Below are positions 4,476-56,348 of a DNA stretch of 64,000 nucleotides, piece by piece. The DNA comes from a plasmid. Position numbers and translations under genes: made by a program. The notes beneath the pieces were generated by a model, which worked only from the letters and a program-made list of their open reading frames with translations, had not been told where the DNA came from and ran no database searches. Positions within the stretch are counted from its first letter, which is position 1, and each line of letters opens with the position of its first letter. Location of the stretch: NCBI RefSeq assembly GCF_058153355.1, contig NZ_JBLWLY010000002.1. One strand, 5' to 3'.

Positions 4476-4686
4476 GTAAGCGGCTCGCCAGAACCGTATT
4501 GATATTTACTGAGAGCTCAGATCAACTTTCCAGGGCAACAGATCGCGTACCCGGTTTGCCGGCCAGTCCTGGATATGTTCAATGACGTAACGCAGCCACT
4601 TTTCTGGCTCCACATTGTTCAGACGGCATGTGCCGATCAGCGAGTACAACACCGCAGCATGTTCACCACCGCTGTCAGAACCCGCG

Positions 4687-6511: not shown

Positions 6512-7943
6512 AGAGCCAGTTTTTCCGGCCTACGGCCACTCCCCGTAAGGCGTTCTCTGCGATGTTGTTGTCGATTTCCACCCAGCCATTACTGCAGTAC
6601 ACGTTCAGTGCATCCCACTGTTTCAGCAGGTATGCGAACGCTTTTGCCGTGTCCGAGTGACGCGACAGTGTTTTCATCTGTTGCTGTATCCAGTCATACA
6701 GTGACTGCATCAGTGGCGCGGCTCTGGCTTTTCTTGCCGCCAGACGCTGTTCTGCTGAACAGCCCCGGACCTCTGCCTCGATGGCATACAGTTCACCGAT
6801 ACGCTGCAGGGCTTCCGTGGTGATGTCGGTGGGCACTCTTGCATGCACATCGTGGATTTTTCTCCGGGCATGAGCCATACATGCGGCTTCCGTTATTCTG
6901 CCGGATTCGTACAACGCCCGGTAACCACCGTAAGCATCGGCCTGAAGCACTCCGCTGTAACCGGCCAGATGATTCTGTGGATGGATACCTTTCCGGTCCG
7001 GGCTGTACGCGAACCAGACCGCCGGAGGCATTTCCGAACCGGCATTCCTGTCATCCCGGACATACGTCCAGATATATCCTGTTTTCGCCTTCTTCCTGCT
7101 CGGTGCCAGCACTTTTACTGGTGTGTCATCAGTGTGAACCTTGCGGGTGTTCATCACATAACGGTACAGGGCATCATTCAGCGGAGTCATTAACTGGCAG
7201 CACGCGTCAACCCAGTTGGAGAGTAACGTACGGCTCAGTTCGACCCCCTGACGGGCAAAGATTTCACTCTGACGATACAGTGGCAGGTGTTCGCAGTATT
7301 TTCCCGTTAACACGCGGGCAAGTAACCCCGGGCCCGCGATACCACGCTCTATCGGACGGGACGGTGCCGGAGCTTCAACGATGCAGTCACATTTTGTACA
7401 GGCTTTTTTTACCCGTTCTGTGCGGATCACTTTCAGAGCGCTGCTCACCAGTTCCAGTTGTTCTGCGCTGACTTCCCCCAGATAATCCAGCTCACCGCCA
7501 CACTCCGGGCAACAGCTTTCTTCTGGCTCCAGGCGATTTATTTCGCGGGGCAGATGCTCCGGTAACGGGCGACGATGACGAGACTGTCGTAACTGGCGGG
7601 GAACCCGGAACTCCACCTTGCAGGAGTTTGCACTGACAGTTGTCTGAGTAGATAGAGACGGAGTAAGAGCCGCCACCGGTTCTTTCTGCTCATCCGGCGT
7701 TATCTCCACAGGTAATAATTCAACGCCAGCGTCAGAAGGGGTTGTTACCGGAAGACGCCGTGATATACGCCCTTCGTTTTGCCAGAGTCTGAGCCATTTG
7801 AAAATAACATTATCATTAACGCCATTTTCTCGTGCAATCTGGGCCACACAAGCTCCGGGTTGTGATGCCAGTTCAACCATACGAAGTTTGAATTCATTCG
7901 AATGCTTTTTACGAGGTTCTTTTCGCCAGTCCTGTAATTCCAT
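6512..7943 (-). pseudogene. IS66 orfA-tnpC in-frame fusion, interrupted at 3' end by the intron
   Basis: N-terminus matches orfA of copy at 25452, then jumps at [19 protein letters not shown] into the middle of tnpC; tnpB absent; downstream tnpC exon at 4506..4686. Confidence 0.7.
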
Positions 7944-27840: not shown

Positions 27841-28086
27841 GCGTCAATACGGTGCTCCGTTGACGCTTACGGTGACGGGCTGTGCCTCCTGACCAAACGG
27901 CTGGAGCGTGGGCGTCAGCCCGTGATGGCAAAGTGTTCCTTCGGACACGGCAAAAGCGTTCGCATACCTGCTGAAACAGTGGGTATGCACTGAACGTGTA
28001 CTGCAGTAATGGCTGGGTGGAAATCGACAACAACATCGCAGAGAACGCCTTACGGGGAGTGGCCGTAGGCCGGAAAAACTGGCTCT

Positions 28087-29910: not shown

Positions 29911-30156
29911 TCGCGGGTTCTGACAGCGGTGGTGAACATGCTGCGGTGTTGTACTCGCTGATCGGCACATGCCGTCTGAACAATGTGGAACCAGAAAAAT
30001 GGCTGCGTTACGTCATTGAGCATATCCAGGACTGGCCGGCAAACCGGGTACGTGATCTGTTGCCCTGGAAAGTTGATCTGAGCTCTCAGTAAATATCAAT
30101 ACGGTTCTGACGAGCCGTTTACTCAGAAAGAGAGCGATACGCTACAGCTGGAGCTG

Positions 30157-32490: not shown

Positions 32491-33033
32491 GTGAGTATTA
32501 AATATATTGTGTTTATCTCTGCTTTATTAATTTCCAATACGGGAAAGGGGGGCGAACAGCGAGTTGTTTTCAATGTGGATATTGTAGGTTCTGCCTGTCA
32601 TGTGGTGGTGGATGCGGACGGTTTCGGCAACAGTGGCCGACTGATATTCGGGACTTACCGTAAATCCACTGGCGCACCTGTATTGCCACGTGACTTCGTT
32701 GTGCGCTTGTATGAGTCCGGCGCTACGGTTCAAGGGTGTTCAGCCTTTCGAGCGGGGCAGGTCGCAACTCTGGATTTTGGTAACCCGGGCCAGCTGGACG
32801 CAAAGGGAGTGGTCACTCGCGGTGCTGGTGATGGTATTCGCGTGGATGTACGGGCGGTGGATACACAGGCGGATTATCGCGGACGTCTGACTCAGGACAG
32901 TCATTCGGTGAATTACCCGGTGGAGTTTGCTGTTAAGGGACAGTTCCGTTTTCGTGCACAGCCGGTGTTTCCGGTGAACGTGAAGGCAGGGGAATACACA
33001 GGGGCGCTGACCTTTGTGGTCACGTATCAGTAA
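32491..33033 (+). CDS. K88/F4-type minor fimbrial subunit (FaeC-like position)
   Basis: 180-aa ORF immediately upstream of the usher gene; AT-rich promoter region upstream. Confidence 0.55.
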
Positions 33034-33044
33034 CAGAGGAAAGT

Positions 33045-35480
33045 GTGTGTGCAGGAAAGAAGGGGGCAGAGCTGGTTTTGTTCTTGTTTTTTCGTCGGGC
33101 CGCGCTTGCTGTATCAGTCGCTTTCGCCAGTGCCACAGGTGTTGCAGGTGAAAAACTGGATATGTCCTTTATTCGGGGTGGTGCCGGGATTAATCCGGAA
33201 GTCTGGGCAGCGCTGAACGGCAGCTATGCACCGGGACGTTATTTGGTTGACCTGTCCCTGAACGGGAAGGAAGCCGGGAAACAGATACTGGATGTGACAC
33301 CACAGGACAGTGATGAACTGTGCCTGACAGAGGCATGGCTGACGAAGGCCGGGATTTACGTCAGTGCAGATTACTTTCGTGAGGGATATGACGCCACACG
33401 GCAGTGTTATGTGCTGACAAAAGCGCCGTCAGTGAAGGTGGATTTTGATGTTTCCACTCAGAGTCTGGCGCTGTCCCTTCCCCAGAAGGGGCTGGTGAAG
33501 ATGCCGGAGAACGTGGACTGGGATTACGGGACTGGTGCATTTCGCGTGAACTATAACGCGAACGCCAACACCGGCCGGAATAACACCTCGACCTTTGGCT
33601 CGGCAGATCTGAAGGTTAATATTGGGCACTGGGTGGTGAGTTCTTCTGCCTCAGCCAGCGGTGGTGACAGCGGGGATAACTCCGCCACGATAAACGCGTT
33701 CACGGCCACCCGGGCCATCCGCGCACTGAGTGCGGACCTGACGGTCGGGAAAACATCCACCGGGAGCAGTCTGCTGGGCAGTACGGGAACGTACGGAGTG
33801 TCGCTGAGCCGGAACAACAGCATGAAGCCGGGCAATCTGGGGTATACCCCGGTGTTCAGCGGCATTGCGAACGGGGCGTCGAGGGTGACACTGACACAGA
33901 ACGGGCGGTTGCTGCATTCGGAGATGGTGCCGGCAGGTCCGTTCTCCATCACGGATGTGCCGCTGTACACCAGTGGGGATGTGACCATGAAAATCACCGG
34001 CGAGGACGGTCGTGAGCAGACTCAGGTCTTCCCGTTGTCGGTGATGGCCGGGCAGTTAAGCCCGGGACAACACGAGTTCAGCGTGGCAGTCGGTTTGCCT
34101 GACGATGACAGTGACCTGAAAGGCGGCGTGTTTGCGGCGTCATACGGTTACGGTCTGGATGGACTGACGCTGCGCACCGGGGGCGTGTTTAACCGGGACT
34201 GGCAGGGTATTAGCGCCGGGGCTGTCCTGGGGCTGAGTTATCTGGGGGCAGTGTCTGCTGACGGGGCTTATGCCATGGCGAAATACCGTGACGGCAGCCG
34301 CAGCGGAAATAAGGTGCAGTTATCCTGGAGTAAACAACTGGAGATGACGAACACCGGACTGCGGGTGAGCTGGTCACGGCAGAGTGAGGAATATGAGGAC
34401 ATGTCCTCCTTTGACCCGACAGAGCTGTGGTCGCAGTCAAATCATGGTCGCCGGCCGAAGGATGAATGGAATGCCGGTATCAGTCAGTCGGTGGGGGGGC
34501 TGTTCAGTCTGTCGGTGTCCGGCTGGCAGCGGAGTTATTACCCGGCACAGATGACGGGCCGTTATCGGTACAGCGATGACAATGGTCTGGACACAGGGAT
34601 TACCGGTACCCTGAGCACACAGATTAAGGGCGTCAGTCTGAATCTGGGCTGGTCCGGCTCACGGAATTCGCAGGGAGAGAATAACAGGTCGGCGTCAGCC
34701 TCTATCTCGGTGCCATTCACGCTGTTTGAGCGTCGCTACAGCAGCAGTACGTCGGTGAGTACCAGCAAAGGCGGTGGCACGGGCTTCAGCACTGGCGTGT
34801 CCGGCTCGCTGAATGACCGTTTCAGCTATGGCTTGGGCGGCGGTCGTGATAGCGGTGGTGGTGTGAGTAGTTATCTAAACGCGTCGTACAGTGGTGACCG
34901 GGCTTATCTGAATGGTGCCCTGAACCACTCACAGTCCGGCGGAACCAGTGGTTCTGTATCAGTCAGCGGTTCGGTACTGGTCGTCCCGACGGCGAAAGAC
35001 ATTATGTTCAGCCGCACGACCGGGGACACCGTGGCCGTGGTGAACGTGAAGGATACACCGGGTGTGAAGGTGACGTTCGGTGACGGACAGACTGACAGCG
35101 ACGGCAACCTGGTGGTACCGCTGAACAGCTATGACTGGAACACGGTGACGATTGATGCGGGCACACTGCCGCTGAGCACCGAACTGACGAACACCAGTCA
35201 GAAGGTGGTGCCGACGGACAAGGCGGTGGTCTGGATGCCGTTTGATGCCCTGAAAGTCAAGCGTTACCTGCTGCAGGTGAAGCAGCGTGACGGTGAGTTT
35301 GTGCCAGGGGGAACCTGGGCACGTGACAGTAAGAACACACCGCTGGGCTTTGTAGCTAACAATGGTGTGCTGATGATTAACACGGTGGATGCGCCGGGTG
35401 ATATCACCCTAGGCCAGTGCCGGATACCTGCGGCCAGACTGCAGGATACTGAGAAACTACAGGAGATTACGTGTGAGTAA
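33045..35480 (+). CDS. fimbrial outer-membrane usher (FaeD-like)
   Basis: 811-aa ORF, usher-sized, between subunit and chaperone genes. Confidence 0.85.
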   Translation: MCAGKKGAELVLFLFFRRAALAVSVAFASATGVAGEKLDMSFIRGGAGINPEVWAALNGSYAPGRYLVDLSLNGKEAGKQILDVTPQDSDELCLTEAWLTKAGIYVSADYFREGYDATRQCYVLTKAPSVKVDFDVSTQSLALSLPQKGLVKMPENVDWDYGTGAFRVNYNANANTGRNNTSTFGSADLKVNIGHWVVSSSASASGGDSGDNSATINAFTATRAIRALSADLTVGKTSTGSSLLGSTGTYGVSLSRNNSMKPGNLGYTPVFSGIANGASRVTLTQNGRLLHSEMVPAGPFSITDVPLYTSGDVTMKITGEDGREQTQVFPLSVMAGQLSPGQHEFSVAVGLPDDDSDLKGGVFAASYGYGLDGLTLRTGGVFNRDWQGISAGAVLGLSYLGAVSADGAYAMAKYRDGSRSGNKVQLSWSKQLEMTNTGLRVSWSRQSEEYEDMSSFDPTELWSQSNHGRRPKDEWNAGISQSVGGLFSLSVSGWQRSYYPAQMTGRYRYSDDNGLDTGITGTLSTQIKGVSLNLGWSGSRNSQGENNRSASASISVPFTLFERRYSSSTSVSTSKGGGTGFSTGVSGSLNDRFSYGLGGGRDSGGGVSSYLNASYSGDRAYLNGALNHSQSGGTSGSVSVSGSVLVVPTAKDIMFSRTTGDTVAVVNVKDTPGVKVTFGDGQTDSDGNLVVPLNSYDWNTVTIDAGTLPLSTELTNTSQKVVPTDKAVVWMPFDALKVKRYLLQVKQRDGEFVPGGTWARDSKNTPLGFVANNGVLMINTVDAPGDITLGQCRIPAARLQDTEKLQEITCE

Positions 35481-36255
35481 GCGTAACGCAGTAACGACGT
35501 TTTTCACTAACCAGGTGACAAAAGCACTGGGAATGACGCTGGCGCTGATGATGAGCTGTCAGAGTGCGGTGGCTTCCCTGGCGGCAGACCAGACCCGCTA
35601 TATCTTTCGCGGGGACAAGGATGCGCTGACCATCACGGTCACCAACAATGACAAGGGACGTACCTTTGGTGGTCAGGCATGGGTGGACAATATCGTGGAG
35701 AAAGACACCCGTCCGACTTTTGTGGTGACGCCGTCCTTCTTCAAGGTGAAGCCGAATGGTCAGCAGACACTGCGTATCATCATGGCCTCGGACCATCTGC
35801 CGAAGGATAAAGAGTCGGTGTACTGGCTGAACCTGCAGGATATTCCGCCGGCTCTGGAGGGCAGCGGTATTGCAGTGGCGCTGCGTACGAAACTGAAACT
35901 GTTCTATCGCCCGAAGGCACTGCTTGAAGGTCGCAAGGGGGCAGAAGAAGGCATCAGTCTGCAGAGCCGCCCGGATGGCAGGACCATGCTGGTGAACACC
36001 ACGCCATACATTTTTGCGATTGGCAGCCTGCTGGACGGAAACGGAAAGAAAATTGCCGCGGATAACGAGACGGCGCAGAAACTGCTGATGTTCATGCCGG
36101 GTGATGAAGTACAGGTGAAGGGAAATGTGGTGAAAGTGGACTCCCTGAATGATTACGGTGAACTGCAGACATGGACGATTAACCAGAAGAAATCAGCAAT
36201 ATCGTCTGCACAGAAGTCATCTGATACAGAGGGTAATTCATCTGATAAAAAATAA
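35473..36255 (+). CDS. periplasmic fimbrial chaperone (FaeE-like)
   Basis: 260 aa with signal peptide; start overlaps usher stop. Confidence 0.8.
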   Translation: MSKRNAVTTFFTNQVTKALGMTLALMMSCQSAVASLAADQTRYIFRGDKDALTITVTNNDKGRTFGGQAWVDNIVEKDTRPTFVVTPSFFKVKPNGQQTLRIIMASDHLPKDKESVYWLNLQDIPPALEGSGIAVALRTKLKLFYRPKALLEGRKGAEEGISLQSRPDGRTMLVNTTPYIFAIGSLLDGNGKKIAADNETAQKLLMFMPGDEVQVKGNVVKVDSLNDYGELQTWTINQKKSAISSAQKSSDTEGNSSDKK

Positions 36256-36289
36256 TCGCCCTCCGGCATACGGAACAGAGGGGTAATAA

Positions 36290-36781
36290 ATGAAGAAAAC
36301 AATGATGGTAGTCGCCTTGGCCCTGAGTGCACTCAGTATTCAGTCAACACTTGCCGCTGAATACAGCGAGAAAGCGCAGTATCTGGGGGTGGTGAATGGC
36401 CAGGTGGTGGGTAACAGCGTGGTGAAGGTAACCCGCACACCGACAGATCCGGTGCTGTACCGGAGTGGAGACACGACGCCTCTTCCCGACCGCCTGACCA
36501 TCCGTAATGCAGAATCCAGAGCAGCATCTGGTGGCTTGGCGTATATCACGGTGAAACAGGTGCTGCCTGATAACGGGGAAGCCCGCATCACCCTGAAGAC
36601 GGCCCTGATGGTTGATGGAAAGAAAGTGGCAATCAGCGCCAGACAGCAGGGTGAGGATATGGTGATAACTTTGCCGGAAGCACAGAAGCAGATTGAATTA
36701 AGAACGGATGCACCGGCAGAGCTGGAAGTACCGGTCAGTTACCGGGGAAATCTGCAGATAGCGCTGCAGGTGGAGGACTGA
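36290..36781 (+). CDS. minor fimbrial subunit (FaeF-like)
   Basis: 163 aa with signal peptide MKKTMMVVALALSALSIQSTLA. Confidence 0.6.
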   Translation: MKKTMMVVALALSALSIQSTLAAEYSEKAQYLGVVNGQVVGNSVVKVTRTPTDPVLYRSGDTTPLPDRLTIRNAESRAASGGLAYITVKQVLPDNGEARITLKTALMVDGKKVAISARQQGEDMVITLPEAQKQIELRTDAPAELEVPVSYRGNLQIALQVED

Positions 36782-36994
36782 GGATTCATTTCCTTTATAA
36801 ATGCAGTACATCCCGTGATTCCGGAGCGGGTCATATTGGTAAAGGGATTTACCGTCTTTTAAAACGGGAATAACGTAAAACAATTCTGAGTTAAACACTG
36901 TGTTTAATGAAATGCGGTTATTTAAATGAATCCGCAGGGGATGGTTTTGCGGTAATTCCGGGGAAATAAGGATTACTGATTCAGTTTATTATTT

Positions 36995-37819
36995 ATGAAA
37001 CGTCAAGGTGATTATTTTATGAAAAAGACTCTGATTGCACTGACTGTGGCTGCTTCTGCCGCAGTATCCGGCTCTGCTATGGCGTGGAATCCCGCTGGCC
37101 TTGGTGGCAACGGTGGCACCTTTAGCATGAGTGGTACTCTGAGCAAAGCTGCGAAAGTAGTACCGTGGGCAGTGGAAATAGGTGCTCCGGTAACAGCGCT
37201 TGATGTGACCGTTAAACCTGACCAGAAGAATGTTTTCATTCTTTTAGAAAAAGACATACCGATACTTGGCATTCGTAGCGCCCCGCAGGGTTTCATAGGG
37301 GAAAAGGGTATTGCCCCACAAATCGATTATAATAAAGCCGCTAATTTTGATTATATGGATAAGGGGAATTTACCTGCGGAAATTGATGTCACATCATCTG
37401 ATGGTAAGAAAATTGGTACTCTGGCGTTCGTAATGCGAGTTGCCTGTCAGGCCAGCGAAAAGAAGGGTGAAAGCGACGACAAGTTAAATAGTAGCATGCT
37501 ATTCGCTGGTTCAAAAGGTAAAGCTTTCTTTGGTGGAGTTGCCAAAGATGAAAAGGGTATCTGGAGTGACGCCGCTGCCTATACTTGGGCTACCCACCTT
37601 TTTAGCAGTATTGCTGACTCGTGGGATACTAAAATTCCTTACACGGCGGGCGATGCAGATGAAACCGACTTCAGTGATGGAAACAGTATTTACCGAGGTT
37701 ACTATGCATCCGGCCTTGTCAAGGGTATGCCCATGGAACTAACTCTTGATCAGACTATAACGTCTGCTACCCCAATTCCGTGGAAAGCTTCTCTGCCAAT
37801 TGTTATCTCCTACATGTAA
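36995..37819 (+). CDS. major fimbrial subunit (FaeG-like)
   Basis: N-terminus MKKTLIALTVAASAA...AWNP resembles K88 FaeG MKKTLIAL...AW; 274-aa ORF, probable start about 37020. Confidence 0.75.
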   Translation: MKRQGDYFMKKTLIALTVAASAAVSGSAMAWNPAGLGGNGGTFSMSGTLSKAAKVVPWAVEIGAPVTALDVTVKPDQKNVFILLEKDIPILGIRSAPQGFIGEKGIAPQIDYNKAANFDYMDKGNLPAEIDVTSSDGKKIGTLAFVMRVACQASEKKGESDDKLNSSMLFAGSKGKAFFGGVAKDEKGIWSDAAAYTWATHLFSSIADSWDTKIPYTAGDADETDFSDGNSIYRGYYASGLVKGMPMELTLDQTITSATPIPWKASLPIVISYM

Positions 37820-38032
37820 TTCAGCAGTGTTCAGCAGTAAGCACTTACCCGTTTACTGCTGATTAAAACTTCAGAACACAGTTTCCGGTGACCCGACCTG
37901 AATATACAGAACCGGTATGTCAGAACAGGTGTTTTTCTGTTGGAGTGTCTTGTGACGCATATTGGTTCTGTGCTTTTTTTAACAAAATTATTTTATTGAG
38001 CTGTTTTGTTTTATCCGGATAAACAGGAATGA

Positions 38033-38836
38033 ATGCCGATGAAAATAACGCATCATTATAAATTCTTCCTTTCTGCTGTTATTTTGGTAACCATATTTTA
38101 TTCGGCAGTGCCATATGCAAATATTCTTGATGGCGGCGAAATTCAGTTTAATGGCTATGTTACTGATGAAGCACCCAAATGGGCCTGGCAGATAAGTTCT
38201 CCCGACCAGACTTGGTCTGTGGATACTGCCGATGCCCGTACAGAGAACGGGCAACTGGTTTTTAATTTGCATGATAAAGGGGCTCTGCCATTTCTGGAGG
38301 GACATCTGCATGATGTGGCTGAGCGCGGTGGTCCCGGATTCACGCCATTTATTACTTTCAGCAGTAACGGACAGCCTTTTACTGTGACGGAAGGAAATGG
38401 TGCCTCAGCACAGCACTTTCGCGCCTCTGTCCCGGTGCGTGACCCGGAGACGGGGAACGTGTCGGGACAGCTTTTTTTTACCCTGAATCAGGGAATGGCG
38501 GTCAGTACCGGCAGACAGGACGACGGGGCATCCGTACCGGCTGGCATGTCGCTGGTCAGTGGACAGAGTGTGACGGATGTACAGCCGGGAAGTCTGCCAC
38601 AGGGGCTGAAAGCCCGACTCTCTTCCCTGTTACTGATGAATCAAAATTTTGGCAATGGCATGAATGCGGTGGATAACGGACAGGTTATCAACCAGGGGAT
38701 ACTGACTGACGGTCGGGTGATGGATCTGGCTGCGGCATATGCCTCTGCGGTGTCGGATTTTGAACTGCGGTTGCCGGCAGAGGGTACACCTGCAGCATGG
38801 CAGGCGGGGCTGAATGTGACGGTTACAGTACAGTGA
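38033..38836 (+). CDS. minor fimbrial subunit (FaeH-like)
   Basis: 267 aa with signal peptide; position after major subunit. Confidence 0.6.
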
Positions 38837-38865
38837 TGGTTGCAGGGATATAAGGAGAGAAGAGA

Positions 38866-39630
38866 ATGAAAAAGGTGGCGTTGTTTCTGTTTGCTGCTAG
38901 CCACCTGCCTTCCTGTGTACTGGCTTGGAACACGCCAGGAGAAAATTTCAGCGGAGAGCTTAAGCTGGAAGGCCCGGTGACCAGTACCCGTAACCCGTGG
39001 GTATGGAAAGTCGGGCAGGGAAATGAAGGTCTGGAGGTTAAACAGAGCCGCGGTGTTCGTGGCGGTGGGGAGGGGATTCAGGTCGAACTGCCGGCGATGA
39101 CCGTTTTACTGGGAAAAACCACCCTGACCACACCGGCAGGACGTGAGGGGCTTTCACCCCGGGTCAGTTATGGAAAAGGCACTGAGGGGTTTTCACTTGT
39201 ATGGACAGCGCCTGGCATGGCTGAAGTGACGCTACCTGTCACCGGAGATAATAATGCCCGGGCAGGCACATTTGTTTTCAGAATTCAGGCTGTGGGGGTG
39301 TTGCGCCATGTGCAGGGCGGACAACCGGTGTATGTTGGTATGTATGACGACCTGAATACGAATGGTTTGCCAGGTGAAAGCACTGCCATGAAGGTTTCTG
39401 ATATTCCGGGCGTTCTGCAGAAGATGTTCAGTGGGGAAGGCCCCGGCTGGCTTCAGACAATGACACTCAGTGGTTATTCAGGGGTGAGTCATTTCAGTGA
39501 TGACTTCCTGCGCCAGGTTGAAGGTGTGTATGGTGCACAGACTGTGGCTGGCAGTGGTGAATTACGGCTGAACGGCGAGATGCCGGAACACTGGAGGGTG
39601 TCACTGTCAGTAAACATTGAATATCAGTAA
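38866..39630 (+). CDS. minor fimbrial subunit (FaeI-like)
   Basis: 254 aa with signal peptide ending AWNTPGE, similar N-terminus to the major subunit. Confidence 0.6.
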   Translation: MKKVALFLFAASHLPSCVLAWNTPGENFSGELKLEGPVTSTRNPWVWKVGQGNEGLEVKQSRGVRGGGEGIQVELPAMTVLLGKTTLTTPAGREGLSPRVSYGKGTEGFSLVWTAPGMAEVTLPVTGDNNARAGTFVFRIQAVGVLRHVQGGQPVYVGMYDDLNTNGLPGESTAMKVSDIPGVLQKMFSGEGPGWLQTMTLSGYSGVSHFSDDFLRQVEGVYGAQTVAGSGELRLNGEMPEHWRVSLSVNIEYQ

Positions 39631-39953
39631 GGAGCAGGAGTGCGTTTTATAATCCGGAGATAAGGAACGTCGGTTACTGTAAGATTGGGGAGTTGTGTTG
39701 ATAGCGGGAGTGGCTGGAATAAGTGGTATACATAGATAAAAATTAAAACTATCACTATTTGAGGAGTTTTTTCCTGCTCTCCATGGGCTTTATAGCTCAC
39801 AAAAAATAGAATAATATTATTAATTATTCTGCTTTTTTATGGGCATTCCCCCTTGAAAAATGAGTTTGTGCCAGAATATTATTAATGTGTTTTTTGTGAT
39901 TTACTAATCAAGGATTGCTGAATAGCATCCAGTACTGAATATTTTGTTCAATT

Positions 39954-41180
39954 ATGTCAGGAACCATACCGAAAATCAAAACAGGTGAAAATGTTCTGTC
40001 TGCAGCCATTCAGCGCATTGAATGGCTATTTGGAACGTTTCCTTCTGTCTGCTTGTCCTTTTCTGGTGGTAAGGATTCTACCGTGCTTTTCCATCTTGTG
40101 TCCGAAGTGGCCCGCAAAAAGAGGCGTCGTTTTTCGGTATTGTTCATTGACTGGGAAGCACAATATCAATGCACCATTACGCATATTCAGAAGATGCAGA
40201 AGATGTACCTGGATGTGACGGACAGGTTTTACTGGGTGGCCCTTCCCCTGACTACGGTAAACGGTGTCTCTCAGTTTCAGCCGGAGTGGATATGCTGGGA
40301 GCCTGGTGTGACCTGGGTTCGCCATCCACCGGAATATGCTATTACGGATATGGCGTATTTTCCCTTTTACCGATATGCCATGACCTTTGAGGAATTTATC
40401 CCGGCGTTTTCCTCCTGGTTTGCCAGGGATAAATACCTGGTGGCTGTTCTGACCGGAGTCCGGGCAGATGAGTCCCTCAACCGCTTTATGGGACTGGTAT
40501 CCCGTCGCAAACAGAGATATGCCGATGATAAACCCTGGACTACGGCATCACCTGAAGGGTTTTATTACACCATGTATCCGTTGTATGACTGGAAAGCCCG
40601 TGATATCTGGATATATAACGCCAGAACCCGAGCTATCTACAATCCCCTGTATGACCTGATGCACCGTGCCTGTGTGCCGTTACGCAACATGCGTGTCTGT
40701 GAGCCTTTTGGTCCTGAACAGCGTAAGGGGCTGTGGCTTTATCATGTTCTGGAGCCGGAAACCTGGGCCAAGATGTGTGAGCGGGTGTCGGGTGCTGCCA
40801 GCGGGGCGCTTTATGCCAATGAGAGCGGTGCCTATTTTGCCCTGCGTAAGCGTATCACGAAGCCGCCTCATCATACCTGGCGTAGCTATGCGATGTTCCT
40901 GCTGGATGTGATGCCGGAAAGAACGGCAGAACATTACCGTAACAAAATTGCTGTCTACCTGCGCTGGTATCAGACGCGAGGCTTCCCGGATGACATTCCG
41001 GATGAACAGGAGAATGACCTGGGGGGCCGGGATATCCCGTCCTGGCGACGCATCTGTAAAACACTCATAAAAAATGATTTCTGGTGCCGGACCCTCTCCT
41101 TCAGTCCGAACAAAGCCCGGCACTATGAACGTTACCTGCAGCGTATGAAGGAAAGGAGGAAGGAATGGGGGATTCTGTGA
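39954..41180 (+). CDS. PAPS-reductase-family (PP-loop) protein, IbrA-like
   Basis: 408 aa with PP-loop motif SFSGGKDS near the N-terminus. Confidence 0.7.
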   Translation: MSGTIPKIKTGENVLSAAIQRIEWLFGTFPSVCLSFSGGKDSTVLFHLVSEVARKKRRRFSVLFIDWEAQYQCTITHIQKMQKMYLDVTDRFYWVALPLTTVNGVSQFQPEWICWEPGVTWVRHPPEYAITDMAYFPFYRYAMTFEEFIPAFSSWFARDKYLVAVLTGVRADESLNRFMGLVSRRKQRYADDKPWTTASPEGFYYTMYPLYDWKARDIWIYNARTRAIYNPLYDLMHRACVPLRNMRVCEPFGPEQRKGLWLYHVLEPETWAKMCERVSGAASGALYANESGAYFALRKRITKPPHHTWRSYAMFLLDVMPERTAEHYRNKIAVYLRWYQTRGFPDDIPDEQENDLGGRDIPSWRRICKTLIKNDFWCRTLSFSPNKARHYERYLQRMKERRKEWGIL

Positions 41181-41803
41181 CACCGGAGATACTTGGCAAC
41201 ATGATTCGTCAGTATTTCAGTCAGGTACGAACTGAAAAAGAGAGCATACAGGCTCTGAATCATCTGCGCAGAGTGCTTCATGAGGTCAGTCCTTTTGCAC
41301 AGGAGCCTGTGGACTGTGTGTTGTGGGTGAAAGCGGATGAGGTGGTGGCCAACGATTACAACCCTAATGTCATGGCACTAGGTGAGAAAAAACTACTGAA
41401 ACAGTCTCTGGAGAAAGATGGTTTCACACAACCGGTGGTGGTGTCAGAGGAGAAGAATCATTATCTGGTGGTGGATGGTTTTCATCGTCAGTTACTGGGG
41501 CGGGAAGCAGATACAGGAAAACGCCTGAGGGGCTGGTTGCCTGTAGTCTGTATTAATCCGGAGAGAAAGGGACAGGCCGCACGTATTGCCGCGACCATTC
41601 GACATAACCGGGCCAGGGGGAAACACCAGATCACTTTAATGTCTGATATTGTCAGGGATCTTTCACGTCTGGGCTGGACGAATGAACGTATTGGTACAGA
41701 GCTGGGAATGGACCAGGATGAAGTGCTGAGGCTGAAACAGATTAGCGGGCTGACAGAGTTGTTTCAGGAAGAGGATTTCAGCCCGGCTTGGACGGTTCGT
41801 TGA
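41165..41803 (+). CDS. ParB-like nuclease-domain protein, IbrB-like
   Basis: 212 aa with VVDGFHR (ParB/DGQHR-type motif); start overlaps upstream stop. Confidence 0.7.
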   Translation: MGDSVTPEILGNMIRQYFSQVRTEKESIQALNHLRRVLHEVSPFAQEPVDCVLWVKADEVVANDYNPNVMALGEKKLLKQSLEKDGFTQPVVVSEEKNHYLVVDGFHRQLLGREADTGKRLRGWLPVVCINPERKGQAARIAATIRHNRARGKHQITLMSDIVRDLSRLGWTNERIGTELGMDQDEVLRLKQISGLTELFQEEDFSPAWTVR

Positions 41804-42030
41804 TGCTGTTAAATATGGGCGGTATTTCTGAAAGTTGATACTTTGGGTAGAAAAAATGATACCGGAAACTATGAAGGATGTGCTTGTCAGGTGACTAGAC
41901 ACCATAGGTCTTAGGCTTTGATAACGGGATAAGATGAGCTGCTTTTCTCATACCATCAGGTGTGATGATGTCGCAGATTTACAAAATCTGATTGATTCTA
42001 AAGATGTATAAGTAAGGAAAAAGTTTTGAT

Positions 42031-42915
42031 ATGAAAAAACAGATATTTATTAATAATAAACCTCCTGTAGTCCCTTATTCAGGGGCGCACGCGAAAATAT
42101 TTAAATACATTGAAATCCCTCTGCCGTTTTTCTACTTTATCTATACATCAGGCGAACCATTCCACATGTCTGTCCAAAATACTGTTATTTATGTATCAAA
42201 ATACAATGGTATATTTATTAATAAATCAGTTCCTTTTTCTTTTTTATTTGACAGAGATATATCTGTTCTTCAAAGAAGAGATATTTGTGTTGTGCGATTT
42301 ACGTCAGAGGAGATAAGTGAACATAATGTTTTATTTGATCATGACTTTGAACGATTAAAAAAAATTTCCAAAGCTCAGCTTATATCTCCCGATTATGTTT
42401 TGATTGATTTTTCTAGTGGGGGGGAGGATGAATCCTACGCAATGTCCTGGTTAATATCTCAGTGTACTCATCAGTATACAGATAATAAAAAGACGGAGAC
42501 AGATGCTATTTACGATAAAGTGCGGAGTTCTTATTTGCTTTCATGTATTCTGCAAAAAAACGAAAATGTTGGGCTTATTCTTCATGCACCATCATTTGTT
42601 TCTGTGTCTGAAAAAATCGCCAGAATTGTGATGGCAAATTACTCCCGTAACTGGAGTACTTCCGAGTTGGCCAGTGCGGTTTTAATGAGTGAATCTTCTT
42701 TAAAAAGAAGAATGTACAAAGAGGTCGGTTCTATAAGTACATTTGTACATAAAATAAAGCTTACAGAAGCTATCAGGAAATTACGAAGGACAAATACTCC
42801 CATTTCTGTCATATCATCTGAGTTAGGTTACAGTTCACCATCGTATTTTTCTAAAGTTTTCTTTAAATATTTAAAGACATACCCTCAAAACATAAGGAAG
42901 AAAAATGGTCGGTAA
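42031..42915 (+). CDS. AraC-family transcriptional regulator (Rns/AggR-type position)
   Basis: 294 aa, low-GC gene; C-terminal region AraC-type HTH. Confidence 0.75.
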   Translation: MKKQIFINNKPPVVPYSGAHAKIFKYIEIPLPFFYFIYTSGEPFHMSVQNTVIYVSKYNGIFINKSVPFSFLFDRDISVLQRRDICVVRFTSEEISEHNVLFDHDFERLKKISKAQLISPDYVLIDFSSGGEDESYAMSWLISQCTHQYTDNKKTETDAIYDKVRSSYLLSCILQKNENVGLILHAPSFVSVSEKIARIVMANYSRNWSTSELASAVLMSESSLKRRMYKEVGSISTFVHKIKLTEAIRKLRRTNTPISVISSELGYSSPSYFSKVFFKYLKTYPQNIRKKNGR

Positions 42916-43102: not shown

Positions 43103-43144
43103 CGCGCCGCCTTCGTAAGCGGCTCGCCAGAACCGTATTGATAT

Positions 43145-44716
43145 TTACTGAGAGCTCAGATCAACTTTCCAGGGCAACAGATCGCGTACCCGGTTTGCCG
43201 GCCAGTCCTGGATATGTTCAATGACGTAACGCAGCCACTTTTCTGGCTCCACATTGTTCAGACGGCATGTGCCGATCAGCGAGTACAACACCGCAGCATG
43301 TTCACCACCGCTGTCAGAACCCGCGAAGAGCCAGTTTTTCCGGCCTACGGCCACTCCCCGTAAGGCGTTCTCTGCGATGTTGTTGTCGATTTCCACCCAG
43401 CCATTACTGCAGTACACGTTCAGTGCATCCCACTGTTTCAGCAGGTATGCGAACGCTTTTGCCGTGTCCGAGTGACGCGACAGTGTTTTCATCTGTTGCT
43501 GTATCCAGTCATACAGTGACTGCATCAGTGGCGCGGCTCTGGCTTTTCTTGCCGCCAGACGCTGTTCTGCTGAACAGCCCCGGACCTCTGCCTCGATGGC
43601 ATACAGTTCACCGATACGCTGCAGGGCTTCCGTGGTGATGTCGGTGGGCACTCTTGCATGCACATCGTGGATTTTTCTCCGGGCATGAGCCATACATGCG
43701 GCTTCCGTTATTCTGCCGGATTCGTACAACGCCCGGTAACCACCGTAAGCATCGGCCTGAAGCACTCCGCTGTAACCGGCCAGATGATTCTGTGGATGGA
43801 TACCTTTCCGGTCCGGGCTGTACGCGAACCAGACCGCCGGAGGCATTTCCGAACCGGCGTTACGGTCATCACGAACGTAGACCCACAGCCGGGCAGTCCT
43901 TGTTTTACCGCTGCCCGGCTCCTGGACCGGAACGGGGATATCATCGGCATGGACTTTACCGGGCATCAGCACATACTGGCGCAGGATGTCATACAGCGGT
44001 TCCAGCAGTTCAGCAACAGCACCTGTCCAGCGCCCCAGTGTGGCACGGCTCAGCTCCACGCCCTGACGACGGTATATTTCTGACTGGCGGTATAACGGCA
44101 GATGGTCTGCATATTTTCCAGCGACAACATGGGCCAGAAGCCCCGCTCCGGCATAACTGCGTGCAATGGGTTTTGAAGGCACCGGAGCCTGCACGATATG
44201 GTCGCACCGGCAACAGGCCAGTTTCGGACGTTGTGTTTCGATAACCTTAAAGGCGCTGCTGATAAGCTCCAGTTGCTCTGACACATCACATCCCAGAGAA
44301 CTGAGTTCGCCACCACAGGCCGGGCAGCATTCCTCTTCCGGACGGATGACCCGGGTTTCACGGGGAAGTGAGGCAGGTAACGGTTTACGGGCTGAAGACT
44401 GGCGCAGGGGAGATGGCAGTACCGGGTCATATTGCTCACCCAGCGTTTCCGCCATTTCTTCCTGAAGAGCGCTGATTCGCTCCTGTGCTTCCTGTATCTG
44501 CCGTTCGGTTTTTGCACGAAGTTTTTCTGAGCTTTTACCGAACTGCATGCGCTGCAGTTTTGCAACCAGCGCCTTCAGCCGGTTGATTTCGGAAGCATAA
44601 GCCGCCACCCGCTGTGAGAGCAGGCGGTTGTATTTCGCCATCTGGCGGATGGTGTCCTGTTGCGTCTGCAACAGTGCCCGCAGGCGGGCATTCTCATGAG
44701 CAAGTGAGGTGTCCAT
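43145..44716 (-). CDS. IS66 TnpC transposase
   Basis: 523 aa, intact. Confidence 0.85.
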
Positions 44717-44735
44717 ATCCTCACTTTACAACGGG

Positions 44736-45083
44736 TTATATGCGGATGCCAGCGCGTTCCGTTCGTTTCGGGTGTTTCCAGTCGATGCCCTCAAGAAGCA
44801 TGGATAACTGGGCCGGAGTAAGGTGCACCTTGCCGTCACGGGTGACCGGCCAGACGAAGCGGCCCCGCTCCAGGCGTCTGGTGAAGAGGCACAGTCCGTC
44901 ACTGTCAGCCCACAACACTTTTATCTGGTCACCCCGGCGTCCGCGGAAGATGAACAGATGCCCGGAGAACGGGTCATCCTTCAGGACGTTCTGAACTTTT
45001 GAGGCCAGGCCGTTAAAGCCATTTCGCATATCGGTGATACCTGCAACCAGCCAGATACGCGAACCTGCAGGGAAAGATATCAT
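44736..45083 (-). CDS. IS66 TnpB
   Basis: 115 aa. Confidence 0.8.
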   Translation of the reverse strand: MISFPAGSRIWLVAGITDMRNGFNGLASKVQNVLKDDPFSGHLFIFRGRRGDQIKVLWADSDGLCLFTRRLERGRFVWPVTRDGKVHLTPAQLSMLLEGIDWKHPKRTERAGIRI

Positions 45084-50237: not shown

Positions 50238-51290
50238 ATGAAAACTGAACTGACCCTGAATGTATTACAGACCATGAGTGCACAGGAATATGAAGATATC
50301 CGGGCTGCCGGAAGTGATGAACGCCGTGAGCTGACACACGCCGTGATGCGGGAACTGGATGCGCCGGACAACTGGACGATGAATGGCGAGTACGGCAGCG
50401 AGTTCGGCGGCTTTTTCCCCGTCCAGGTCCGTTTCACGCCTGCCCACGAACGTTTTCACCTGGCGTTATGTTCACCGGGCGATGTCTCTCAGGTCTGGGT
50501 GCTGGTTCTGGTGAATGCCGGTGGTGAGCCGTTTGCGGTGGTTCAGGTGCAGCGGCGGTTTGCACCGGAAGCTGTCAGCCATTCACTGGCACTGGTTCCC
50601 CTCAGCGCAGAGCAACAGGCCGCATGGCGGGCGCTGGCAGAGACGGAAAAACGCCGCCATCAGGGAAACTTGCTGGCGGAATATCCGTATGCGGGGGCGT
50701 TTTTCCGCTGTCTGAACGGAAGCCGCAGGATATCGCTGTCTGACCTGCGATTTTTCATGCCGTCCCTGACCGCAGAAGAACTGCACGGCAACCGTCTTCA
50801 GTGGCTGTATGCCATCGATGTGCTGATTGAAACACAGGGCGAGGTCTGCCTCCTTCCCCTTCCCGGTGATGCAGCAGAGCGGTTGTTTCCGTCGGTGCGG
50901 TTCCGTGTCAGGGAGCGCAGTCGCCACAAATCCGCACTGGTCATGCAGAAGTACAGCCGTCAGCAGGCACGGGAGGCAGAGCAGAAAGCCCGTGCGTACC
51001 AGGCACTGGTTGCTCAGGCTGAAATCGAACTGGCGTTCCATTCACCGGAAACAGTCGGAAGCTGGCATGCCCGCTGGAGTGACCGGGTGGCAGAGCATGA
51101 CCTGGAAACCCTGTTCTGGCAGTGGGGTGAGCGTTTTCCGTCACTGGCCGGGATGGAACGCTGGCAGTGGCAGGATATGCCATTCTGGCAGGTTATCGCG
51201 GAAGCCAGTCTGGCAGCAAGAGAGGTCGGTCACGCTGTCCGTGAGATGGAGCGGTGGATGGTGCCGAACAAACTCCGGGAGGCAGCGTAA
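50238..51290 (+). CDS. psiB: PsiB-PsiA in-frame fusion protein
   Basis: N-terminal about 119 aa PsiB-like ([13 protein letters not shown]...), remainder PsiA-like to the end. Confidence 0.7.
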
Positions 51291-51997: not shown

Positions 51998-52640
51998 CCT
52001 GCTCTGATTCTGACTACTGCAGTGTTGTCCTGTCTGCCGGGCGCACCTTCGGCTCCCGGCTGCCTGGCGGCATCCGGTCGTCAGGCCCGACTCCGACAGG
52101 CAGCTGCTGGCGCACCTGCCAGTCTCCGCCGAACCCGCTGGCGCGGTTTCGGGCTGTCGCTACGGTCCGATGCGTGAAAACCCCGGGCTTGCAGCGACCG
52201 TTCCGGTCGCGCCGCCTCTGTCGCGCCGTGGCCTGCGCTCCTGGCATCCCGGCAAAAGGCCGCCGGGATGTAAGGCGCAACGCCGTTTCGCAAACCGCGC
52301 TTCACGTCGTTGCGGCGGGTCCCTGCCCGTTGTTGTGTCCGGTGCCATTCACCTGTTTAAGCCCCTGTCGCCGGGGGCAAAGACAGCCACAACCTGCCGC
52401 ACTGACTGTCTAGGGTAAATGAACAGCCCACAAAATTTTTTACCCAAAACCCGGTAAAAAATTTTGCGTTCTGCCCCGGACAGGTGCGTCAGGCCGTGGC
52501 AGTGATGCCCCTTGCGGCGAAGGTTCTCAAACAGGTGATGGTGAATACCGGAGGGAACAAAAGGCCGGTCCCCGCAAAACGTCAAAACCGCGGCTCCCGA
52601 AACTCAACCGATGATGGGGGCTGAAAACCAGAGAGAGGAG
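51998..52640 (+). repeat. leading-region repeat, copy 2, with about 130-bp internal insertion
   Basis: same sequence as 46828..47295 plus an extra block (tgtcgccgggggcaaagacagcc...gtgatgcccc). Confidence 0.55.
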
Positions 52641-52648
52641 AAAGCAGG

Positions 52649-52936
52649 ATGAGTACCCGAAATATCCACGTTAACACCGCGTCGTACACGCTTCTTGTTG
52701 CCGGGAAGAAAAAAAACACCGGGGAAGAGTGGGACGTCCTGGAATTCAGCAGCCTGACTGAGCTGAAAAAATATCGCAAAAGCCACCCGGAAAAGATGGC
52801 CTTCAGCTATAGCTACGCGCTCAGCCGGGGTGTGGATACGCAGTTCCGCCATATCAACATTGCGGAAGCCGATCACTTCAAACAGTTCCTGCGTCAGATT
52901 AAGCGTGCCGGCCTCGATATCCGGGCGATCTGCTGA
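52649..52936 (+). CDS. hypothetical leading-region protein
   Basis: 95-aa ORF directly after the repeat. Confidence 0.5.
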   Translation: MSTRNIHVNTASYTLLVAGKKKNTGEEWDVLEFSSLTELKKYRKSHPEKMAFSYSYALSRGVDTQFRHINIAEADHFKQFLRQIKRAGLDIRAIC

Positions 52937-53055
52937 CCGGATGTGATGAATATCCCTCCTGATTATTGCAATCTTGTTAATGGAGATCAGGAGGGGATGA
53001 TATTAAGCGGAAAAATTTTTTATTAAATTTATTCTTTCATAAAGGAGTAGCTGTT

Positions 53056-53877
53056 ATGCGATTAGCTTCCCGTTTTGGTCGGTATAATTCCATCCGCCGT
53101 GAACGTCCTTTAACGGATGATGAATTAATGCAGTTCGTGCCTTCGGTATTTTCCGGTGATAAACATGAGTCCCGGAGTGAACGTTATACGTATATTCCAA
53201 CAATCAATATCATCAATAAGTTACGTGATGAAGGTTTCCAGCCATTCTTTGCCTGTCAGAGTCGGGTTCGTGATTTGGAACGTCGCGAATACAGTAAACA
53301 TATGTTACGTCTTCGCAGGGAAGGGCATATTAACGGGCAGGAAGATCCTGAAATTATCCTGCTTAATTCACATGATGGTTCATCCAGTTATCAGATGATC
53401 CCCGGAATTTTTCGTTTTGTCTGCACAAATGGCTTGGTGTGCGGAAATAATTTTGGCGAAATCCGCGTTCCACATAAAGGTGATATTGTCGGGCAGGTTA
53501 TCGAGGGAGCGTATGAAGTGCTCGGTGTCTTTGATAAGGTCACTGATAATATGGAGGCGATGAAAGAAATTCATCTTAACAGTGACGAGCAACATTTATT
53601 TGGCAGAGCTGCACTGATGGTCAGGTATGAAGATGAAAATAAAACGCCAGTGACACCTGAACAGATAATTACTCCCCGTCGTCGGGAAGATAAACAGAAC
53701 GATCTCTGGACAACCTGGCAGCGGGTTCAGGAGAATATGATAAAAGGTGGATTATCGGGGCGAAGTGCCTCCGGGAAAAATACCAGGACAAGAGCCATTA
53801 CAGGTATTGATGGTGATATAAGAATCAACAAGGCGTTATGGGTGATTGCCGAACAGTTCAGAAAGTGGAAGTCATGA
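53056..53877 (+). CDS. DUF932-family protein (leading region)
   Basis: 273-aa ORF; family assignment from memory. Confidence 0.55.
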   Translation: MRLASRFGRYNSIRRERPLTDDELMQFVPSVFSGDKHESRSERYTYIPTINIINKLRDEGFQPFFACQSRVRDLERREYSKHMLRLRREGHINGQEDPEIILLNSHDGSSSYQMIPGIFRFVCTNGLVCGNNFGEIRVPHKGDIVGQVIEGAYEVLGVFDKVTDNMEAMKEIHLNSDEQHLFGRAALMVRYEDENKTPVTPEQIITPRRREDKQNDLWTTWQRVQENMIKGGLSGRSASGKNTRTRAITGIDGDIRINKALWVIAEQFRKWKS

Positions 53878-54172
53878 TAATATAAGTAAAGCCCCGAAAA
53901 ATTTTCGGGGCTTTACTTATATTATCATTTTTCGGCATCTCTGTGTCGTCTGATATACCTCAATTTCATCAACCGGATTTCCGGTTGTCTGTAAATATTG
54001 TGCCCGCGAAAAATGGTCTGGCAGGAGGCTGCGCAGTTACCGGGTATATATAAGATGGGTTCCCGCTTCGCGGGGCTTCGGCCAGTCAGTATTGTCACTC
54101 ATATGATATTTTTGTGTGTGGCCTTCCATGCCGCTTTTGCGGCATAACCGGTATCTGACAATGTCTGTAAGA

Positions 54173-54682
54173 TTAATTGTTCTGCACGCTGTTAATTTCC
54201 GGAAGTGATTTCTTCGTGGCCGGAAGCCGGATACCTTTACTGCTTTTTATCCCGGTATAAATCCGGTAAACATCTGATGCGTAGGCAAGACGTCTCTGGT
54301 TCTGGCGTTCGGTTTTCCTGAATCCTGCATTGTATGCACCAACGGCCTCCCAGGTGACGCCCCATTTTTTAAATGCTATTGCCAGATAATAAGCACCGGT
54401 ATAAATGTTCATGCAGGGATCTGTTGTCAGATGTTCCGGCTTAATTCCGTAGCGGGCCAGTTCGTTAAAATGCTGGGAATCTACCTGCATCAGTCCGCTG
54501 CCATATCCCGTTACCGGATTAATACCGATGGCATTAACCCGGTAACGGGATTCTTTCCATGATATTGCTCTCAGTAAATCAGGATCTATTTTGTAATCCC
54601 GGCCTGCAAGATCAAAGCAATCAGTGGCTTGGCAGATCTCATTTATAAACATCAGGCAGATGGCTAACATCCATTTTTTCAT
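54173..54682 (-). CDS. lytic transglycosylase Orf169/gene X
   Basis: 169 aa from [15 protein letters not shown]-like motifs ([19 protein letters not shown]); the longer track ORF 54173..54820 would run across oriT. Confidence 0.8.
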
Positions 54683-54724
54683 TTTTCCACCTCTGGTGAC
54701 TTTATCCGTAAATAATTTAACCCA

Positions 54725-54815
54725 CTCCACAAAAAGGCTCAACAGGTTGGTGGTTCTCACCACCAAAAGCACCACACCCCACGCAAAAACAAGTTTTTTC
54801 TGATTTATCTTTAAT
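54725..54815. other. oriT with F-type nic sequence
   Basis: minus-strand sequence tttgcgtggggtgtggtgcttttggtggtgagaaccacc; predicted nick between 54773 and 54774. Confidence 0.75.
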
Positions 54816-55095
54816 ATCATTGAGTTGTATTTGTGGATTTATATTGTTTAAATCTGCTTTATTTAAAGCAGCGTCGTTAACGCAGCTACAGCAACGCGCC
54901 GACACCGCTTTGTAGGGGTGGTACTGACTATTTTTATAAAAAACATTATTTTATATTAGGGGGGCTGCTAGCGGCGCGGTGTGTTTTTTTATAGGATACC
55001 GTCAGGGGCGCTGCTAGCGGTGCGTCCCTGTTTGCACTATGAATTCTAGTGTTTCGAAATTAACTTTGTTTTATGTTTAAAAAAGGTAATATCTA

Positions 55096-55479
55096 ATGGC
55101 TAAGGTGAATCTGTATATCAGCAATGATGCTTATGAAAAAATAAACGCGATTATTGAAAAACGTCGACAGGAGGGGGCGAGAGAAAAAGATGTCAGTTTT
55201 TCAGCAACGGCTTCAATGCTTCTTGAACTGGGTCTTCGTGTATATGAGGCTCAGATGGAGCGCAAAGAGTCTGCATTTAATCAGGCCGAGTTTAATAAAC
55301 TACTTCTTGAATGCGTTGTAAAAACACAGTCATCAGTAGCGAAAATTTTGGGTATTGAGTCTCTCAGTCCTCATGTCTCAGGAAATCCAAAGTTTGAATA
55401 TGCCAATATGGTTGAAGATATCAGAGAGAAGGTGTCGGTTGAGATGGAAAGGTTCTTTCCAAAAAATGATGATGAATAA
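55096..55479 (+). CDS. traM: TraM
   Basis: 127 aa MAKVNLYISNDAYEKINAIIEKRRQEG... Confidence 0.9.
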   Translation: MAKVNLYISNDAYEKINAIIEKRRQEGAREKDVSFSATASMLLELGLRVYEAQMERKESAFNQAEFNKLLLECVVKTQSSVAKILGIESLSPHVSGNPKFEYANMVEDIREKVSVEMERFFPKNDDE

Positions 55480-55670
55480 AGGGAAATAAATTTTGACTTT
55501 GTTCAAATATCAGAGTTTTTAATGGTTCAAACTGATGACAATAATCAGAATAATTAGTATATTAATTACGTGGTTAATGCCACGTTAAAATTTGAACTTG
55601 AAAATCGCCGATGCAGGGAGCTTGTCCCTCCCTGCATCGACTGTCCATAGAATCCTTTGAGGAGGTTCCT

Positions 55671-56348
55671 ATGTGTGCGATGGATACTAGAGAAAGAGCA
55701 CTCATACGTCAATCAGGCCTGCCGGAAATTATTTTATCCGCAAAATATCCAGTCTGTGTCCGCACAGAGTCTACCGTTCCCGGTGACCGGATTATCGCCG
55801 TGAACAGTCTGGATGGTGCCCTGACCAATAATGAGCAGACCGCCTCCGGCGGTGTGGTGGTTGCCACCGTCAACAAAAAGCCCTTTACGTTCATTCTGGA
55901 AACAGAACGTGGTCTGAACCTTTCCATTCAGGCCGTTCCCCGTGAAGGCGCGGGGCGTACCATTCAGCTGGTCAGTGACCTGCGCGGAACCGGAGAAGAA
56001 GCCGGTGCGTGGGAAACGTCCACGCCTTACGAATCCCTGCTTGTGACCATCAGCCAGGCCGTCCGTGGCGGAAAATTACCCGCAGGCTGGTATCAGGTCC
56101 CGGTGACAAAGGAAACCCTGCAGGCCCCGGCGGGGCTGTCTTCAGTGGCAGATGCCGTATGGACGGGGAATCATCTGAAGATGGTCCGCTTTGCCGTGGA
56201 AAATAAAACGCTGTCTGCCCTGAATATCCGGGAAAGTGACTTCTGGCAGCCGGGAACCCGTGCCGTGATGTTCAGCCAGCCTGCCAGCCAGTTACTGGCA
56301 GGTGCGCGCATGGATGTGTATGTCACCCGTGACGGGGAGGGCAACTGA
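55671..56348 (+). pseudogene. traJ'-'traK fusion left by deletion of traJ through traE
   Basis: ATG at 55671 with RBS gaggagg; first about 36 codons TraJ-like, then TraK-like sequence from [13 protein letters not shown] to the end. Confidence 0.65.

Follow-up and report, generated by a model that had tools for sequence, protein, structure and literature searches.

A TraJ–TraK chimera in the remnant of an F-like transfer region on an Escherichia coli plasmid

In F-like plasmids, traJ is driven by the promoter PJ, TraJ activates PY, the genes from traY to traX are transcribed from PY, and TraY activates PM; translation of traJ is blocked by FinP together with FinO (PMC7690428). An F-type oriT located on a replicon without a relaxase or a T4SS is transferable by the machinery of a helper (PMC7690428). 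For the ETEC enterotoxin plasmid pEntH10407, Ochi et al. (2009; PMC2762410) described the tra region as "incomplete". Like the plasmid analyzed here, of which a stretch of 64,000 nucleotides (the 64-kb window) was studied, pEntH10407 is a mosaic RepFIIA virulence plasmid whose tra genes were kept from traM to traR, and in both plasmids the region beyond traR was replaced by ISEc8 or ISEc8-like elements (IS66 family, 523-aa transposase) (PMC2762410). Unlike the present plasmid, pEntH10407 retains traJ, traY, traA, traL, traE, an intact traK, traP, trbD, and trbG (PMC2762410). It also retains traD-traI-traX-finO and is transferred at low frequency (PMC2762410), whereas neither traD nor traI was seen in our window. 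Another plasmid, pSCU-106-2 (NZ_CP053236.1), has independently lost the segment from traJ to traE and shows the same succession of traM, a gap, and traK-traB. In pSCU-106-2, an IS1 at the deletion replaces part of traJ through traE, traK is of full length, and no chimeric ORF is formed; in the plasmid described here, the joint contains neither an IS nor microhomology, and traJ' and 'traK form one in-frame ORF. Virulence plasmids commonly carry decayed F-type tra regions, as pEntH10407 and pSCU-106-2 illustrate, and nothing sets the locus under study apart but its precise end points, the chimeric ORF in frame, and a joint without an IS.

Intact F-like regions with the same traM/traJ/finP allele are found on pSF-173-1 (NZ_CP012632.1) and pHK17a (NC_016039.1). 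Both plasmids are typed as conjugative and keep a full traJ, traY, traA, traL, and traE, a full traK, and trbD, as well as traC through finO. The segment comprising oriT, traM, PJ, the traJ leader, and FinP was 99.0–99.7% identical to these plasmids up to position 55771, and the order traK-traB-traP-traV-traR along with the ORFs following traR is common to all three. Plasmids mobilizable by virtue of oriT only also have no relaxase of their own, which in our case applies to the window; however, minimal oriT constructs lack traM and finP, both of which are kept on the present plasmid.

The initial annotation placed an ORF about 190 bp downstream of traM and read its first 36 codons as the start of TraJ and its remainder as TraK. 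The distance was borne out, with 191 bp between the stop of traM (55479) and the ATG at 55671. A search by tblastn with pHK17a proteins and DNA alignment both demonstrated that the ORF is a TraJ–TraK chimera, although its TraJ part comprises 34 codons rather than 36. Residues 1–34 of pHK17a TraJ matched positions 55671–55772 with 100% identity, and residues 52–242 of TraK matched positions 55773–56345 with 99.5% identity (pHK17a and F TraK as queries). The alignment of 55480–56348 with traJ and traK, proposed earlier as a check, located the joint at 55771|55772: the traJ homology (99.7% over 55480–55771) stopped at 55771, and the traK homology started from 55772. According to the base-by-base comparison with pHK17a, nucleotides 1–101 of traJ are joined in frame to traK from nucleotide 153 (Table 1). 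Ser34 of the TraJ part is preserved across the joint as TCT, and the TraK part has one substitution, I236T. In the comparison with pSF-173-1, which on this side is more closely related than pHK17a, the left flank showed 99.0% identity over 52590–55771, and the homology ended exactly at 55771 as well. Both flanks of the joint matched thousands of F-like plasmids with 94–99.7% identity. Relative to the intact pHK17a, 2,342 bp are absent at the joint, namely traJ codons 35–215, the traJ–traY intergenic region with PY, traY, traA, traL, traE, and traK codons 1–51, signal peptide included. No microhomology between the two parental sequences was detected at the joint in the alignment with pHK17a.

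The natural start of the chimera is the ATG at 55671, which is located behind GAGGAGG and corresponds to the position annotated for traJ in pHK17a; translation from this codon gives a protein of 225 aa. The stop codon of traK and the start codon of traB share bases (ATGA type, CTGATGG). Both the ORF listing and NCBI PGAP start the chimera at the ATG at 55611, 60 nt upstream of the real start and within the traJ leader/FinP stem-loop region (55611–55670), which yields 245 aa. The corresponding NCBI protein, EGO8355032.1 (245 aa), is named "type-F conjugative transfer system secretin TraK".

Full-length TraJ proteins (about 215–229 aa) consist of an N-terminal PAS-like dimerization part and a C-terminal DNA-binding part. 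Only residues 1–34 of 215 are present in the chimera. Intact TraK of F and pHK17a begins with a signal peptide; the N-terminus of the chimera has no hydrophobic core. Pfam profiles for both domains of TraK, a VirB9-like protein, were still recognized above the cut-off, TraK_N with 40.5 bits (56.5 bits in intact TraK) and TraK_C with 79.5 bits, but TraJ sequence takes the place of the 17 residues with which the TraK_N match region opens (35–51 of intact TraK). Since the signal peptide as well as the PAS and HTH parts of TraJ are missing, the chimera probably works neither as TraK nor as TraJ. Our literature search revealed no traJ–traK fusion of this kind.

Table 1. Features of the transfer region remnant and its surroundings (positions within the 64-kb window).
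Feature	Position	Strand	Description
psiB'-'psiA in-frame fusion	50238..51290	+	350 aa, leading region
oriT region	54740..55095		Nick region, then TraY/IHF/TraM binding region up to the traM start
traM	55096..55479	+	Intact, 127 aa
PJ-like promoter site	55535..55563	+	ATGACA-17-TATATT, 10/12 consensus matches (consensus scan), at the expected PJ position
traJ mRNA leader (5' UTR)	55568..55676	+	Complete; Rfam RF00243, model positions 1–109 of 109
FinP antisense RNA gene	55601..55677	-	Complete; Rfam RF00107, model positions 1–76 of 76
finP promoter-like site	55712-55684	-	Kept; promoter scan, at the expected position
traJ' remnant	55671..55771	+	First 101 nt: codons 1–33 and two bases of codon 34
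'traK remnant	55772..56348	+	Third base of codon 51, codons 52–242, stop; in frame with traJ'
traB	56348..57796	+	Intact, 482 aa; 93.8% full-length identity to pHK17a TraB
traP'-'trbG in-frame fusion	57786..58406	+	206 aa; tblastn, junction alignment, Pfam
traV	58403..58918	+	Intact, 171 aa; 97.1% identity to pHK17a TraV
traR	59053..59274	+	Intact, 73 aa; 93–96% identity to pHK17a and F TraR
Small post-traR ORFs, R100/pHK17a type	59267..61174	+	tblastn vs. pHK17a hypothetical proteins
Two paralogous post-traR ORFs	59267-59680, 59673-60146	+	Homologous to the single hypothetical gene after traR in pHK17a
Further post-traR ORFs	60226-60444, 60441-60845, 60842-61174	+	
IS66-family (ISCro1/ISEc8-like) element	61171..63711	-	Three ORFs, 62-nt perfect terminal inverted repeats

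The elements upstream of the joint were retained. Full-length identity of TraM was 99.2% to pHK17a and 96.9% to F (tblastn). The traJ leader scored 128.3 bits against RF00243 (gathering score 50), and the FinP gene scored 101 bits against RF00107 (gathering score 45); the retention of FinP and its promoter had not been mentioned in the initial annotation. FinO had no tblastn match in the 64-kb window and could be supplied from elsewhere on the plasmid or from a co-resident plasmid.

The oriT, assumed earlier to be intact, proved to be so. Over its whole length, the 356-nt stretch that separates the SLT gene from traM was 99.2% identical to plasmids typed as conjugative, and about 30 PLSDB records had an oriT identity of at least 99%. 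Both the nick site and the accessory-protein binding region are present. On the minus strand, the nick site reads GCGTGGGGTGT|GGTGC, which is the F type, and the nick falls between 54774 and 54773; the nick region 54755–54795 (GTGGGGTGT) is identical to that of F and pSF-173-1. In pHK17a, the nick is of the R100 type, GTAGTGTGT, though its traM/traJ/finP allele is otherwise the same. The F-type and R100-type nick variants are expected to govern the specificity of TraI.

Downstream of the joint, the persistence of traB, traP, traV, and traR had been claimed. The claim stood for traB, traV, and traR, all of which are intact, and failed for traP, which is truncated and fused to trbG, with trbD missing. 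The exact TraB protein is present in NCBI (EGO8355031.1, HFG3511405.1). By tblastn, the TraP–TrbG ORF consists of F TraP from residue 1 to about 140–142 and F TrbG from about 15 to 83 in one frame, and the Pfam TraP profile was covered only at positions 1–144 of 202. The joint lies within the 10-nt direct repeat TATCCGGTGC (58197–58206), and the deletion took the 3' end of traP, trbD, and the 5' end of trbG; the overlap of the trbG stop with the traV start was kept. NCBI names this chimera "TrbG" (EGO8355030.1), and the contiguous traP–trbG junction was absent from PLSDB. Self-blast of the paralogous pair after traR revealed a repeat (59245–59657/59651–60060) with 77% DNA identity. The last ORF of the group, 60842–61174, is devoid of about 10 C-terminal codons, and its stop codon comes from the IS.

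A third fusion was found in the leading region. It combines PsiB from residue 1 to about 119–127 with PsiA from about 4/5 to 238/239 (NCBIfam, blastp, and alignment with F) and arose at a 98-nt deletion between TTCAC(T/A)GGCACTGG repeats, of which the window copy is located at 50582–50595. No contiguous psiB–psiA junction occurred among the PLSDB matches listed; the fusion was present in GCA_015332025.1 and SRR28786219 and is private to the same lineage as the other two. In the indel comparison with F and pHK17a, the psiB–psiA, traJ–traK, and traP–trbG deletions were the only within-gene deletions of at least 20 nt in the 45.7–61.2 kb region. Repeats of 8–10 nt accompany the psiB–psiA and traP–trbG deletions. 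All three lineage-private deletions are in frame, for which the neutral probability, calculated post hoc, is (1/3)^3 = ~0.04, and the overlapping stop and start codons at traB and at traV survived the deletions. This pattern is mildly unexpected under neutral decay and may be due to chance; it could hint at selection for continued translation downstream, but we do not take it as evidence of function.

This pattern lends slight support to an alternative, selection on the remnant. With frames and coupled translation preserved by the in-frame fusions, TraB, TraV, and TraR, and likewise a PsiB–PsiA protein, would still be made, now from a PJ-transcribed, FinP-gated cluster serving a non-conjugative role, e.g., an action of TraR on the host RNA polymerase or an envelope complex. 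The in-frame state of three out of three private deletions, the preserved traK/traB and trbG/traV overlaps, and the intactness of traB, traV, traR, PJ, the leader, and FinP are in line with this. However, the pattern comprises three events only (p ~0.04) and was noticed post hoc, and the normal TraK/TraV/TraB outer-membrane complex cannot form with a chimera devoid of the TraK signal peptide. Besides, the isolates differ by 3 SNPs in 14.8 kb, which left no time for the decay of ORFs, so that intact ORFs carry little information; moreover, traB, traV, and traR are not known to function without a pilus. We consider selection on the remnant improbable. A more specific version, quite improbable in our opinion, is that selection rewired the relic cluster (TraJ'-'TraK, TraB, TraP'-'TrbG, TraV, TraR) to the PJ and FinP switch for a non-conjugative function, or that co-resident F-like helpers with the same allele have their fertility modulated by the retained finP and traJ leader. 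Neutral decay remains the preferred reading, and the intactness of traB, traV, and traR fits a recent deletion without proving these genes to be functionless.

The traJ–traK junction was absent from 72,556 PLSDB plasmids, 5,426 complete E. coli genomes, GTDB representative genomes (40-mer and 24-mer searches), and JGI metagenome contigs. Taken by itself, this absence would be compatible with an assembly or cloning artefact, in which case the true plasmid would have an intact traJ–traK segment. An exact-protein look-up, however, retrieved the chimeric protein together with its neighbors in NCBI, where it is deposited under the accession given above, and in Logan. The same DNA was carried by a 14.8-kb contig of GCA_043012465.1 (3 SNPs compared to the window), and sequences identical to the window were found on a 6.4-kb contig of GCA_015332025.1 and a 7.0-kb contig of the Logan assembly of SRR31441161. 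All three E. coli contigs share both the traJ–traK and the traP–trbG junctions. Recovery of these junctions from two NCBI drafts and one Logan assembly of a separate run, the SNPs that distinguish one of the assemblies, and a joint free of repeats prone to misassembly make an artefact extremely improbable. Since the same junction occurs in three independent assemblies, the deletion is real and marks one small lineage of E. coli. No isolates with one of the deletions but not the others were found.

The alternative that this lineage has a divergent TraK whose own N-terminus comprises the first ~34 residues, with traJ to traE located elsewhere, as the plain NCBI name "TraK" might imply and as the initial annotation had allowed for, is virtually inconceivable and was refuted by the alignments: these residues are 100% identical to TraJ 1–34 and stand behind a complete leader and FinP at 99.7% DNA identity, TraK of F and pHK17a opens with a signal peptide, and no traJ–traE genes were found elsewhere in the window.

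The predicted loss of the regulator gene and of traY, traA, traL, and traE was substantiated for the entire window. No matches to TraY, TraA, TraL, TraE, or TrbD were obtained in the 64 kb by tblastn with the pHK17a and F alleles, and the same was true for TraC through TraI, TraH/TraG, TraD, TraX, and FinO. No second copy of traJ, traY, traA, traL, or traE was found in the window with either set of alleles (E = 1 for F). Given the strong divergence among TraJ alleles, the lack of a tblastn match carries little weight by itself; in addition, no unexplained gene-sized space beside oriT emerged from the ORF inventory. No unassigned ORF of at least 430 aa is present in the 64-kb window, which leaves no room there for a relaxase, a coupling protein, or a VirB4-type ATPase. 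The window is therefore devoid of the features of a self-transmissible F-like (MOBF/MPF_F) system: the pilin with the pilus-assembly set, TraI/TraD, and TraJ with PY. Accordingly non-conjugative as far as the 64-kb window is concerned, the plasmid as a whole is predicted from its sequence to be incapable of conjugation by itself; the part of the replicon beyond the window could still contain traI, traD, or another transfer system.

Very probably, the locus arose by decay of an F-like (MOBF/MPF_F) transfer region, carried by a mosaic E. coli plasmid of the IncFII virulence type. This is ordinary decay of a conjugation system and not a new mechanism. A single illegitimate-recombination deletion of ~2.34 kb without microhomology joined the start of traJ to traK, and by chance of frame left the 225-aa TraJ(1–34)–TraK(52–242) chimera. 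In the same lineage, the segment traP(3')-trbD-trbG(5') was lost by a slippage-type deletion between the 10-nt direct repeats, and an IS66-family element replaced everything downstream of the post-traR ORFs. With PY gone, transcription of 'traK-traB-traP'-'trbG-traV-traR would have to come from PJ or from read-through from traM/PM, and translation of the chimera would still be under FinP antisense control. By itself, the plasmid would be able neither to build a pilus nor to form a relaxosome and process its own DNA. Mobilization in trans by an F-like plasmid residing in the same cell and having a nick site of this type (e.g., a pSF-173-1-like one) is plausible on sequence grounds, since oriT, traM, and finP were found intact and E. 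coli harbors cognate conjugative plasmids.

The plasmid may be regarded as a candidate for helper-dependent spread. It would represent a further way for an IncF plasmid of the virulence type to become tied to its host without losing oriT, traM, and finP. Because the chimeras bear the public names "TraK secretin" and "TrbG", marker-based typing could count MPF_F genes on a plasmid without a pilus. No new question about conjugation is opened by these data, and their relevance is mainly to annotation and the prediction of plasmid mobility.

The interruption of the operon by IS66 at 61171, noted in the initial annotation, was recovered as an IS66-family element that ends the operon at 61170/61171. 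No 8-bp target duplication was found at this element (flanks CTTCAGGC vs. GTTTAAAT), and the DNA past it is not tra; it belongs to a minus-strand autotransporter gene, of which it is the 3' end. The lack of a target duplication together with the non-tra distal flank indicates that the element marks a rearrangement or deletion and not a simple insertion; the distal part of the operon was replaced, not merely interrupted. As a contiguous sequence, the tra/IS66 junction was absent from PLSDB, and it is specific to this lineage. Two assembly contigs, L006 and L008, terminate at 61168.

The autotransporter sequence adjoining the IS66 element (63876–64000, minus strand) encodes the C-terminal end of the beta-barrel (...NANFRYSF*, TIGR01414) and probably belongs to a SPATE-type virulence gene running off the window. 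Two IS66-family copies, 43114–45082 and 61170–63138, are 99.8% identical and have the same orientation. Between them lie the leading region, oriT, and the tra remnant; divergence of the first copy sets in after 45082, and no target duplication is seen at either junction. This arrangement suggests an IS-mediated rearrangement of the whole segment between the two copies.

Farther upstream, positions 32491–42915 are occupied by a K88/F4-like chaperone-usher fimbrial operon with a PefC/AfrB-family usher (33045–35480), a PAPS-reductase-like gene, and an AraC-family regulator. Large plasmids of E. coli and Shigella boydii contain segments with 97–98% identity to it. Two 2.2-kb repeats in inverted orientation (4475–6656 and 27941–30123) are 99.7% identical; each repeat contains a 410-aa ORF, which we take to be a group II intron reverse transcriptase/maturase, and these ORFs adjoin IS66-family sequence. 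Finally, the leading region contains a 385-bp direct repeat (46815–47197/51982–52366) with 98% identity between the copies, and the same repeat is present in F.
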